Part shown: piece after piece, positions 2,478 through 7,481 of the stretch
How positions within the stretch are numbered: the first letter of the stretch is position 1
How the letters are laid out: every line of letters begins with the position of its first letter
Source: a virus
Direction: 5' to 3' (one strand)
Virus record (IMG/VR): IMGVR_UViG_2065487013_000003
Coordinates: 3,047 to 67,046 of that record
DNA length: 64,000 nucleotides
Notes under the pieces: generated by a model
Databases searched by the model: none
The model's input: the letters and a program-made list of their open reading frames with translations, nothing else
What the model was told of the DNA's origin: nothing
Made by a program: the position numbers and the translations under genes

Positions 2478-3449
2478 ATGACCACAACTGTAAACTCTGA
2501 CCTGATTATTTATAACGACCTGGCGCAGACCGCTTTCCTTGAGCGTCGCCAGGATAATTTGCAGGTATTTAACGATGCCTCAAACGGTGCCATCGTTCTG
2601 GACAACGAACTGATCGAGGGTGATTTCCGTAAACGTGCGTTCTACAAAGTAGGCGGCAGCATTGAAACCCGCAACGTTAACTCAACCGAAACGGTAGAAG
2701 GTAAAAAAATCGGTGCTGGCGAAGCAGTATCGGTAAAAGCGCCGTGGAAATATGGCCCGTACCACACCACTGAAGAAGCGTTTAAACGCCGCGGTCGCAG
2801 TGTAGACGAGTTCTCTGAAGTGGTTGGCGTTGACGTGGCAGACGCTGCGCTTGAAGGCTACGTGAAATATGGACTGAAGGCGCTGATCGCTGCAATCGGC
2901 GGTAATGCTGACATGGTGGTTACCGCCGATATTGAAACTGACGGTAAGCGTACCCTTACCCGTGGGCTGCGTAAGTACGGCGACAAATTTAACCGCGTAG
3001 CGCTGTTCGTCATGCACTCCGCTACCTATTTCGACATCGTGGATGAGGCTATCGCCAACAAAATCCACGAAGAAGCGGGTGTGGTTGTGTACGGCGGTCA
3101 GCCTGGCACGCTGGGTAAGCCGGTTCTTGTCACTGACTCAATGGATGTTGATGCCATTCTGGGTCTGGTTCAGGGCGCGGTGTATGTCACCGAGTCACAG
3201 GTTCCGGGGTTCCGTTCCTACGACATCAACAATCAGGAAAACCTTGCTGTAGGCTTCCGCGCAGAAGGCACGGTGAATGTTGAGCTGTTGGGCTACAGCT
3301 GGGATGAGTCGAAAGGCGATAAAAACCCGAGCCTGGAAAAAATCGGTACCGAAGGGAACTGGAAAAAACATTTCACTTCTAACAAATCTACCGCAGGCGT
3401 GCTGATTAAGCTCACTGGCGCCGAACCCGCAAATCAGTCCGTAAAGTAA
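2478..3449 (+). CDS. Major capsid protein
   Basis: 323 aa, high-expression codon usage, position after the scaffold. Confidence 0.88.
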   Translation: MTTTVNSDLIIYNDLAQTAFLERRQDNLQVFNDASNGAIVLDNELIEGDFRKRAFYKVGGSIETRNVNSTETVEGKKIGAGEAVSVKAPWKYGPYHTTEEAFKRRGRSVDEFSEVVGVDVADAALEGYVKYGLKALIAAIGGNADMVVTADIETDGKRTLTRGLRKYGDKFNRVALFVMHSATYFDIVDEAIANKIHEEAGVVVYGGQPGTLGKPVLVTDSMDVDAILGLVQGAVYVTESQVPGFRSYDINNQENLAVGFRAEGTVNVELLGYSWDESKGDKNPSLEKIGTEGNWKKHFTSNKSTAGVLIKLTGAEPANQSVK

Positions 3450-3727
3450 GCCTGTCAGCGGATAAAACTTCCGTCACCGCTGACGGTACAGATTCCGTAA
3501 CCTTCTCCGTCAAAGTCACCAAAGATGATGCGCCCGTTTCCGGTGCGGCTATCTCGTGGGCGACGTCTGGCGGGGTGCTCAGTTCGGAATCAACTTCGAC
3601 GGGCTCTGCTGGTGGCTCAACGGTAAAACTGACCTCAGAAGAGGCTGGTGAATTTACCGTGACCGCCACGGTTGATGGCGTGGGCGTCACGTCAGAAAAA
3701 ATCACCTTTGCACCAGCAGGTGCGTAA
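3446..3727 (+). CDS. Ig-like (Big_1 type) domain, probably fused to the capsid by a -1 frameshift
   Basis: No start codon; the -1 frame reads VSLSADKTSVTADGTDSVTFSVKVTKDDAPVSGAAISW...TVTATVDG; A_AAG at 3443-3446 and a 10-bp stem starting 5 nt downstream. Confidence 0.82.
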   Translation, partial: VSLSADKTSVTADGTDSVTFSVKVTKDDAPVSGAAISWATSGGVLSSESTSTGSAGGSTVKLTSEEAGEFTVTATVDGVGVTSEKITFAPAGA

Positions 3728-3732
3728 TCAAC

Positions 3733-3758
3733 AGGGGGCTTGTCCCCCTTAATTTTTT
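3733..3758 (+). terminator. Terminator after the Ig-domain frame
   Basis: AGGGGG-CTTGT-CCCCCT, then AATTTTTT. Confidence 0.6.
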
Positions 3759-3766
3759 GGTGAGAC

Positions 3767-4249
3767 ATGATTGATACCAATATCACCTCTCCTGATTTCA
3801 ACAGCTACGCCAGCGAAGCCGATTTACAGAAATATGCCAGCGCTCGAGATCTGATGTTGCCGGAAAATCTCCCCGCGATACTCCTCAAAGCAATGGATTA
3901 TCTGGAAGGCCTTAGCTGGTACGGCATCCGCGCCAGCCCGTCACAGCCTCTGTGCTGGCCCCGTCTCGATATCGAATTTGACGGTCATCCTTTCCCGTCA
4001 GATCAGATCCCCCGTCAGGTTATTACCGCCCAGTGCATGCTGGCGGTTGAAGCGGTTGACGGTGATTTACTCGGTTCCTCCCGTGAGGCTGCGGTGAAAA
4101 CTGAGCGCGTGGAAGGGGCTGTGACGATGACTTACGCCGTGGCTGATGGTGAGGCCTTCGTCCCATCTTATCCAGCCGTTGACGCGCTTCTGGCTGCGTT
4201 TATGGGCGGGCGTGGGTTTGCTATTAACACATTCTCGGAGCGTGGATAG
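3767..4249 (+). CDS. Head-tail connector (DnaT-like domain family)
   Basis: NSYAS...KAMDYL...QPLCWPR...TERVEGAVTMTY pattern; position. Confidence 0.7.
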   Translation: MIDTNITSPDFNSYASEADLQKYASARDLMLPENLPAILLKAMDYLEGLSWYGIRASPSQPLCWPRLDIEFDGHPFPSDQIPRQVITAQCMLAVEAVDGDLLGSSREAAVKTERVEGAVTMTYAVADGEAFVPSYPAVDALLAAFMGGRGFAINTFSERG

Positions 4250-5871: not shown

Positions 5872-6810
5872 ATGGGCTTTGCATTGCCTAACGGCTCGCA
5901 CGTCTATCTGGCGTCGGGCTATGATCCTGCGGTTCCATTTACAGGGGCGACTAATGCCGAACATGCCGTTGTCACGGTTGAATCAGGGGGCGGATTTGCT
6001 TCTGGCGACGTTGTTCACGTCAATTGTGACTGGACCGGAATTGATAACGTCGTCGCGCTGGTTGATGCCGTTGCTGGTTCGGCGGTAACCCTTCGCAACA
6101 TCAACACCACCAACACCGGAAAATTTCCTGCTGGTGGTGGAAGCGGTACTCTGCGTAAGGTCACCGAATGGACCGAAATCCCTCAGATCACCGAGGTGGC
6201 GAACGCGGGTGGCGAGCAGAACACCACGCAGATCCAGTTTTTGTCTGATGACCGTCAGCGTAACCTTAACACCTACAAATCAGCCAGTTCGCAGACCTAC
6301 ACCATTGCGCATGATTCATCGCTTCCGGTTTACCCGCTGCTGCGCAAGCTTGATGAGGATGAAGAAACGGTGGCGGCGTACATGTACGTGCCAAAAGCGA
6401 AAGAAAACCGCTACTGGGCGGCGACAGCTTCTTTCAATGATATTCCGCAGACAGCCGTAAACTCAGTTGAAACAGTAACCGCAGTTCTCAACCTTCAGTC
6501 TCCTGCTATGACGTTCTACAAAATCGATAACGTGACTACCCCAGCAGTACAGGTCACGGGGGTTACTCTCAACGAGACTAAGCTGGATCTGGATGCTGGC
6601 GAAACAGCTCAACTGGTCGCTGAAGTCACTCCGGCTGATGCCACAAATAAACAGGTCACCTGGTCAAGTTCGAATGAAGAAGTCGCCAAAGTTAGCGCCG
6701 ATGGGCTTGTGACGGCGATGGCTGGCGATGGCGGTTCAACGATTATCACCTGCACAACGGTAGACGGCAGTAAAACCGCGACCTGTGAAGTTACCGAAAC
6801 GGTAGCTTAA
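5872..6810 (+). CDS. Major tail tube protein with C-terminal Big_2 Ig domain
   Basis: LPNGSHV start; GGEQ...QFLSDD motif; C-terminal VTGVTLNETKLDL...TNKQVTWSSS. Confidence 0.9.
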   Translation: MGFALPNGSHVYLASGYDPAVPFTGATNAEHAVVTVESGGGFASGDVVHVNCDWTGIDNVVALVDAVAGSAVTLRNINTTNTGKFPAGGGSGTLRKVTEWTEIPQITEVANAGGEQNTTQIQFLSDDRQRNLNTYKSASSQTYTIAHDSSLPVYPLLRKLDEDEETVAAYMYVPKAKENRYWAATASFNDIPQTAVNSVETVTAVLNLQSPAMTFYKIDNVTTPAVQVTGVTLNETKLDLDAGETAQLVAEVTPADATNKQVTWSSSNEEVAKVSADGLVTAMAGDGGSTIITCTTVDGSKTATCEVTETVA

Positions 6811-6858: not shown

Positions 6859-7170
6859 ATGGCAACTAAATTTGAGCTGCAACCGAAACCGACTTTTAAA
6901 GCCAACGTAGAGATCCCGCGAGCAGGGGAAGAGCCTGGCGTGCTGACTTTTACGTTCCGTCATAAGTCAGCGGATCAGATCAAAGAGATGGAAAAGCGTG
7001 AAGGGGCAACGGCAGTTGATTTTCTGTCTGAAATAATTGAGGGCTGGGCGCTGCCTCAACCTTACACCCGCGAAAACCTGACGGTGTTACTGAATAACTA
7101 CCTGAGCGCGGCAGGTGCAATCACCGAAAAATATTACGCCGAACTGATGGGGATCCGGGAAAAAAACTAA
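6859..7170 (+). CDS. Tail assembly chaperone (gpG-like)
   Basis: Between tube and tape measure; ends at slippery A_AAA_AAC. Confidence 0.85.
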   Translation: MATKFELQPKPTFKANVEIPRAGEEPGVLTFTFRHKSADQIKEMEKREGATAVDFLSEIIEGWALPQPYTRENLTVLLNNYLSAAGAITEKYYAELMGIREKN

Positions 7171-7481
7171 TAGCGGTTGCCTCTGCATTCTATACGCCTG
7201 AAGTGGCAGCGGAGGACATGGCCACCTTCGGGCTGACTGATGACGATTACGACGATGTGATCGTTCACGTTCTGCCTGATGTGTGGCCCGCCTTTTGCCT
7301 GTTCCAGTCGCTGTCTACGCAATGGCGCACTGGCTTTGGTGGCGCGACAGGACTTGATTATAACGTGCTGCCCTGGCTGATGCGCGTTCACGGCATCGAG
7401 GATGAGGCAACCGCCCTAAATGACATCCGTATCATGGAGCGCACCGCTCTGAAAACCATGCATAAAAAAGAGGTGGCCTGA
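7167..7481 (+). CDS. Tail assembly chaperone frameshift extension (gpT-like, DUF1799-like)
   Basis: The -1 frame is open from the slippery site; TQWRTGFGGATGLDY motif. Confidence 0.82.
   Translation, partial: LIAVASAFYTPEVAAEDMATFGLTDDDYDDVIVHVLPDVWPAFCLFQSLSTQWRTGFGGATGLDYNVLPWLMRVHGIEDEATALNDIRIMERTALKTMHKKEVA

Follow-up and report, generated by a model that had tools for sequence, protein, structure and literature searches.

A predicted -1 frameshift at the last sense codon of an enterobacterial phage capsid gene would fuse a Big_1 Ig-like domain to the major capsid protein

The major capsid gene of a siphophage-type prophage very probably encodes two proteins, the longer of which would arise by a programmed -1 ribosomal frameshift at the last sense codon and would carry a Big_1 Ig-like domain fused to the end of the capsid protein. 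The gene lies in a stretch of 64,000 nucleotides, hereafter the window (positions 3,047 to 67,046 of IMG/VR record IMGVR_UViG_2065487013_000003); coordinates are those of the window and features lie on the plus strand unless stated otherwise. A preliminary description, made from the sequence without database searches, had proposed a frameshift at this place, and we find that the proposal is supported by a -1 register shared by all 59 loci that carry the domain, by the dN/dS ratios of the -1 frame, by conservation and covariation of a hairpin downstream, by in-frame fusions in sister phages and by the absence of a canonical start codon in 28 of the 59 loci, the window among them.

Results

The capsid gene and its surroundings

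The window starts inside the late operon of the prophage. By Pfam, its gene order begins with a DUF4055 protein fragment, followed by a Mu-F-like head protein (514-1626) and a scaffold-like protein (1692-2465). The major capsid gene (2478-3449) is located between this scaffold gene and that of a DnaT_2-like head-completion protein (3767-4249), and a tail tube protein, tail chaperones and a tape measure protein are found further along. The capsid gene encodes an HK97-type protein of 323 residues (35.1 kDa). In a Pfam profile search PF20036 covers residues 8-309 with an E-value of 3.3e-105, which places the protein in the Gp13-like family, and the solved capsid chains 8xb6 and 9zys are homologous to it; residues past ~309 form a variable linker. 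At its 3' end the ORF reads ...TCC GTA AAG TAA, and the ending GTA AAG TAA is thus as first described.

An intrinsic-terminator-like hairpin (GGGGG/CCCCC) with a T-tract is found at 3733-3758, directly 3' of the stop codon of the Ig frame. No terminator-like site follows the capsid stop, in agreement with the preliminary description.

The tail genes of the window have features of a similar kind. The tail tube protein (Phage_tail_3, 5872-6810) possesses an in-frame C-terminal Big_2 domain at residues 228-307 (E 2e-17), and given the predicted Big_1 domain on the capsid the phage would show Ig-like domains of two families, on its tail and on its head. In the tail assembly chaperone pair at 6859-7481, the Phage_TAC_4 ORF (6859-7170) ends ...CGG GAA AAA AAC TAA, the DUF1799 part is in the -1 frame, open from 7098, and a canonical A_AAA_AAC heptamer adjoins the stop. 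Judged by its sequence, the pair would be a usual G/GT-type frameshift, likewise abutting a TAA.

A complete Big_1 domain in the -1 frame

The -1 frame is open from stop to stop at 3410-3727. Its overlap with the capsid frame is limited to 40 nt (3410-3449), so any shift between the two frames must fall there. From 3446 to 3727 the -1 frame encodes a domain of 93 residues followed by TAA (3725-3727). It contains no ATG, GTG or TTG before 3575, the only near-cognate codons before that position being CTG at 3452 and ATC at 3551, and no Shine-Dalgarno sequence for the Ig frame is found in the window. The 93 residues match the Pfam Big_1 profile (PF02369) from end to end, over positions 2-92 of 93, with a score of 65.9 bits (E 3.6e-18) against a gathering threshold of 34.9 bits. 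The frame had been described beforehand as start-less, 93 residues long, Big_1-like and ending at 3727, and each of these properties holds.

A profile search against PDB sequences matched the domain to intimin (E 1e-25) and to invasin. The model of the domain is a 9-strand beta-sandwich with a pLDDT of 92.5, which superposes on D0-D1 of intimin (6tpl; Foldseek) with a TM-score of 0.89 and an rmsd of 1.3 Å. Only the Ig domain was folded; a combined capsid and Ig alignment for the full fusion misaligned Ig fragments and was dropped. The first beta-strand of the model is made up of residues 2-5, so the domain begins at the junction and any later start would truncate the fold. A search of the domain against longer proteins was crowded out; it returned only two large intimin-like proteins and bears on capsid fusions neither way.

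Fifty-nine loci share the register of the junction

Capsid-protein searches yielded 64 related loci from phage records, genome prophages and viral contigs, and 59 loci, counting the window, carry a homologue of the Ig domain. In 59 of 59 the domain occupies the -1 frame, its first base being located 3 nt upstream of the last base of the capsid stop, which is TAA throughout. The last two sense codons always take one of three junction forms, and the resulting classes follow capsid divergence. Class A (GTA AAG TAA; 14 loci) has capsid proteins 94-100% identical to that of the window. Class B (G(C/T)G GGG GAG TAA, giving G_GGG_GAG; 38 loci) has capsids that are ~85% identical; Klebsiella prophages and E. 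coli phage PHB10 belong to it. Class C (G(C/A)G GGA AAG TAA, giving the canonical heptamer G_GGA_AAG; 7 loci) has capsids that are ~78% identical and is found in Providencia. The Ig domain is absent in Pseudomonas and other relatives: with the other frames checked as well, an Ig-like frame was found in none of six more distant capsid relatives (63-69% identity; Medea1, L009 and L057-L060).

The constancy of the register bears on the possibility that the fusion is a product of transcriptional slippage in the RNA, or that the frame break is an assembly error, which we regard as the least probable account of the junction. Nothing specific speaks for it, although homopolymer-linked indels are common in sequencing and class B has a five-G run. 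An assembly error would have to have recurred identically in 59 independent assemblies, at junctions of three different sequences, and for transcriptional slippage the junction of the window offers only AAA. Judged by slippage-prone A/T runs, AAA is too short for polymerase slippage.

One locus, L050 (IMGVR_UViG_2576861709_000001), has an internal indel after ~17 codons that splits the Ig domain between the -1 and +1 frames; the break is either an assembly error or a sign of a decaying copy.

In place of the Ig frame the ORF track had called an antisense ORF, as the preliminary description remarked. This ORF exists (129 aa, 3412-3801, minus strand), and we rejected it as a gene: in classes B and C it contains 1-3 stops, and only the closest relatives keep it open, as expected of a shadow ORF.

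Selection on the -1 frame

When the Ig frame of the window is compared pairwise with that of seven relatives, dN/dS is 0.13-0.28, with a synonymous divergence of up to about 1-2 for the class B and C loci among them. This purifying selection argues that the Ig frame is translated. It also weighs on the idea that the frame is an unexpressed, dead remnant of a former in-frame capsid-Ig fusion that was broken by a frameshift mutation. Such an origin is suggested by the in-frame fusions of close relatives, described below, and by the further internal frame break of L050. It is nevertheless highly improbable, since the frame has stayed open under purifying selection in three clades whose synonymous divergence is saturated, and since shift-prone motifs and a hairpin have been maintained exactly at the junction.

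Start codons in the Ig frame

We counted start codons from the upstream -1 stop to Ig codon 12. A canonical start is absent in 28 of the 59 loci, comprising all 14 of class A, all 7 of class C and 7 of class B, and the Ig frame thus has no conserved start of its own. In 30 of the 38 class-B loci a GTG is found at Ig codon 5, 11 nt after GGGGGAG. A single locus, L021 (IMGVR_UViG_2840160255_000001), has an ATG at Ig codon 2, where a TAATG stop-start overlap follows GGGGGAG; codon 2 varies elsewhere (S/T/N/I/M), so this ATG may be incidental. The preliminary description had named homologues that translate the domain from their own start codon as evidence against a frameshift. No such codon is available in the 28 loci, but the class-B GTG and the ATG of L021 make separate initiation possible in part of the family.

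The one serious rival to a frameshift is such separate initiation, by which the Ig domain would be a small head-decoration protein of its own; translation would begin near the capsid stop, at a non-canonical or coupled start, through termination-reinitiation. Beyond the GTG and the TAATG overlap, it can draw on annotation: RefSeq gives the Ig frame of one relative as a CDS of its own, and one phage record calls a CDS from the class-B GTG. Set against this are the 28 loci with no canonical start and the only near-cognate codon that the window offers for it, CTG at 3452, which is not accompanied by a Shine-Dalgarno sequence and is CTA in relative L051. The first strand of the fold, moreover, is encoded from codon 2, and in Arsenophonus the same domain is covalently joined to the capsid in frame. 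We consider separate initiation quite improbable, and the frameshift remains our preferred reading.

A putative shift site abuts the capsid stop

The putative shift site is C_GUA_AAG (3440-3446), of which the effective part is A_AAG (3443-3446), and the UAA stop of the capsid frame (3447-3449) is directly 3' of the shift codon, within the 5-nt spacer that precedes the hairpin. All 14 class-A loci keep GTA AAG TAA unchanged, whereas their codons further 5' vary freely, which places the shift at A_AAG. This tetranucleotide is documented as a -1 shift motif in E. coli, and G_GGA_AAG is highly shift-prone there (PMC5009743). The window thus has a conserved shift motif in the form of A_AAG only, without a full X_XXY_YYZ heptamer; C_GUA_AAG lets only one tRNA re-pair, so that its efficiency may be low. 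G_GGG_GAG, the commonest junction in the relatives, is not a documented efficient shift site. The sole other candidate site in the overlap, GCA_AAT (A_AAU), was rejected as its codon varies among the closest relatives. No upstream Shine-Dalgarno-like stimulator common to the three junction classes was found.

A conserved hairpin follows the putative shift site

A 10-bp stem (3452-3461 paired with 3477-3486, with a 15-nt loop) starts 5 nt past the A_AAG motif and contains one G-U pair, in accordance with the stem and spacing given in the preliminary description; it is likely to be the stimulatory element predicted from the sequence. Folded as a 45-nt segment, the hairpin has an energy of -17.0 kcal/mol (z -4.6), and none of 200 shuffled sequences is equally stable. 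Hairpins of -15 to -17 kcal/mol (z -3.0 to -5.4) are found in the 45-nt segment of all three classes. It is only this segment that is unusually stable, as the 90-nt junction region folded whole has a z of -1.6.

All 10 stem pairs are standard in 25 distinct junction sequences, as compared with 21-65% after displacement of the 3' partners by 1-3 columns, and RNAalifold recovers the stem. Among these 25 sequences four pairs have one-sided changes that preserve pairing, and in L051 a G-C pair is replaced by A-U through two synonymous substitutions, a compensatory change that is the single covariation event of the hairpin. The fraction of synonymous differences is 0.17 in Ig codons 1-14 versus 0.41 elsewhere (Mann-Whitney p 3.6e-4), and the codons GAT AAA of the loop belong to this region of low synonymous variation. 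Because the stem overlaps codons for conserved residues (LSxDK...TAD), its conservation is due in part to coding constraint.

In the loop (3462-3476) the codons GAT AAA and the following TCC show no synonymous variation in 33 sequences, an invariance for which the 10-bp stem does not account. It may reflect a small alternative CGGA/TCCG helix or a tertiary contact; reading by eye, we saw no downstream complement to the loop.

The competing hairpin that had also been proposed, CCGTCA (3471-3476) with TGACGG (3481-3486), occurs in the window without being conserved: only 78% of its cells pair, it is broken at two pairs in 13 of the 25 relatives and it shows no covariation.

The arrangement as a whole contains the elements of a bacterial -1 frameshift cassette, with an overlapping -1 ORF that has no initiation signal, a shift motif and a structure within the range of 5-9 nt downstream.

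In-frame capsid-Ig fusions in relatives

Arsenophonus protein P0041 (405 aa) is a capsid protein of the same family to which a homologous Big_1 domain is fused in frame. Its Big_1 domain is 51% identical to that of the window over 89 residues (E 6e-26), and its capsid part is ~90% identical to the Providencia capsid proteins P0022 and P0030. At the matching place the P0041 DNA contains no stop, shift motif or hairpin, and the equivalent stretch folds with -9.3 kcal/mol (z -1.4). Relatives from Yersinia, Ewingella and Sodalis have an in-frame Big_2 domain at the same place in the capsid. These fusions, of which the Arsenophonus version is the strongest single argument, indicate that the Ig domain belongs on the capsid C-terminus. 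The family fits the class of virion proteins with recoded Ig domains: the domain would form the C-terminus of a major structural protein, and in relatives it is either fused in frame or absent.

Several database 'capsid' proteins of 380-520 aa (P0014, P0115, P0028, P0029, P0069 and P0101) are chimeric, with the N-terminal part replaced by or joined to unrelated phage segments, for example scaffold-like or terminase-like ones. They are probably artefacts of short-contig assembly or gene calling.

Public annotation

None of five public records inspected annotates a frameshift, and four phage records omit the Ig domain or call a truncated ORF. In E. coli NZ_CP015912.1 (L067:1701-2000) RefSeq gives an 'Ig-like domain-containing protein' whose CDS starts from an ATC located 19 nt within the capsid gene, apparently to get around the lack of a start codon and not as an annotation of ribosomal slippage. 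The 316-aa capsid of Pseudomonas phage Medea1 (L003, MW862109.1) bears the annotation 'major tail protein V; Ig domain-containing protein' although it is without an Ig domain, and many 317-aa NCBI capsids are likewise named 'Ig domain-containing protein', a name that was probably transferred from in-frame capsid-Ig fusions. The literature searched contained no paper dealing with this phage group or with phage PHB10.

Discussion

In the mechanism that we propose, one gene would give rise to two capsid proteins. Most ribosomes would terminate at the UAA at 3447-3449 and release the 323-residue, 35.1-kDa protein. In a fraction of ribosomes, the tRNA-Lys on AAG (3444-3446) would slip back by one base and re-pair with AAA (3443-3445), after which GUA (3446-3448) would be read, followed by 92 further codons. 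The product would be a capsid protein of 416 residues (44.0 kDa) in which a flexible linker leads to a C-terminal intimin-type Big_1 domain, with the junction ...NQSVK-VSLSADK. The slip would probably be favoured both by the slow-to-decode stop that adjoins the shift codon and by the 10-bp hairpin that starts 5 nt downstream. The Big_1 domain would sit outside the head, where its function may be weak adhesion to carbohydrates or surfaces.

By analogy with known systems, the further proposals of the preliminary description, that only a minority of capsid subunits would carry the domain, that the hairpin would tune this ratio and that the Ig domain may serve as an adhesin, are reasonable. The in-frame fusions show that the lattice tolerates the domain on every subunit, and the need for a sub-stoichiometric ratio is thus not evident. 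In-frame or out-of-frame placement of such domains may reflect chance (PMC5009743), a view that fits the pattern seen in the window family.

The three interchangeable junctions have only three things in common: a last sense codon that is read by an mnm5s2U34 tRNA (Lys or Glu), an immediate UAA and the same hairpin with its invariant loop. We have considered that the cassette may be a distinct, termination-coupled type of -1 shift, in which the P-site tRNA would slip while the ribosome awaits release factor. We regard this version as unlikely. If it were correct, the share of Ig-bearing subunits would follow release-factor availability or the growth state of the host and would not be a fixed ratio.

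Extension of a capsid protein by a -1 frameshift has precedents in coliphage T3 (10A/10B), Lactobacillus phage A2 (gp5A/gp5B) and Listeria phages A118 and A500, the extensions of T3 and A2 being Ig-like (PMC5009743, citing Fraser et al. 2006). PSA and SPP1 gp17.1* are also counted among the frameshift-appended Ig-like domains of virions (PMC5009743; PMC8718954). As in T3, A2, A118 and A500, the shift proposed here is near the end of the capsid gene and would yield a second, C-terminally extended capsid protein. The window differs from them in its Gp13-like capsid, in the family of its Ig domain (Big_1, intimin/invasin type) and in its site, a tetranucleotide A_AAG abutting the stop, and its shift is a predicted one.

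A close parallel is found in the MSTV1-like archaeal viruses ('Usuviridae'), in which a predicted -1 frameshift of the capsid gene at A_AAG_GAA appends an Ig-like domain and one relative has the Ig domain fused in frame (PMC11375127). The window family is alike in a shift site that starts with A_AAG, in the Ig-like extension of the capsid and in the existence of an in-frame relative. The archaeal case is likewise a prediction only, and it differs in host, in an unrelated capsid lineage and in a shift site that is away from the stop.

For single-tRNA slippage on A_AAG after a non-slippery codon, Bacillus subtilis cdd (A_CGA_AAG) and IS1222 (G_CGA_AAG) provide models (PMC5009743), and C_GUA_AAG of the window matches their pattern. 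These are cellular or insertion-sequence genes, however, and the cdd case is regarded as incidental. The Providencia-clade relatives use exactly G_GGA_AAG, the heptamer of lambda-type tail chaperone G/GT frameshifts, at the capsid-Ig junction. Lambda itself reportedly uses this heptamer. The G/GT shift concerns another gene and purpose, and the window holds only the A_AAG half of the heptamer.

A frameshift also gives part of a major virion protein an Ig-fold domain in SPP1, where the protein is that of the tail tube instead of the capsid and the domain is of another family. The frameshift that produces gp17.1* is a +1 shift. Gp17.1 and gp17.1* are made at a ratio of ~3:1, and infection does not require the Ig-fold (FN3) domain that gp17.1* carries (PMC8718954).

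The addition of Ig-like domains to capsid and tail proteins by frameshifting is an established class, to which the cassette of the window, as predicted from its sequence, adds a well-supported enterobacterial example. For the family as a whole, the commoner G-run variant is ambiguous with respect to separate initiation, and the A_AAG variant, lacking both a Shine-Dalgarno sequence and a start codon, settles this ambiguity; together, the A_AAG form and the G_GGA_AAG form of Providencia remove the question of the start codon. Public annotation handles the capsid-Ig cassette wrongly. With three shift sites, one hairpin and an in-frame control, the family would be a natural allelic series for shift efficiency, and the capsid C-terminus of these phages would be a natural display site for a folded domain.
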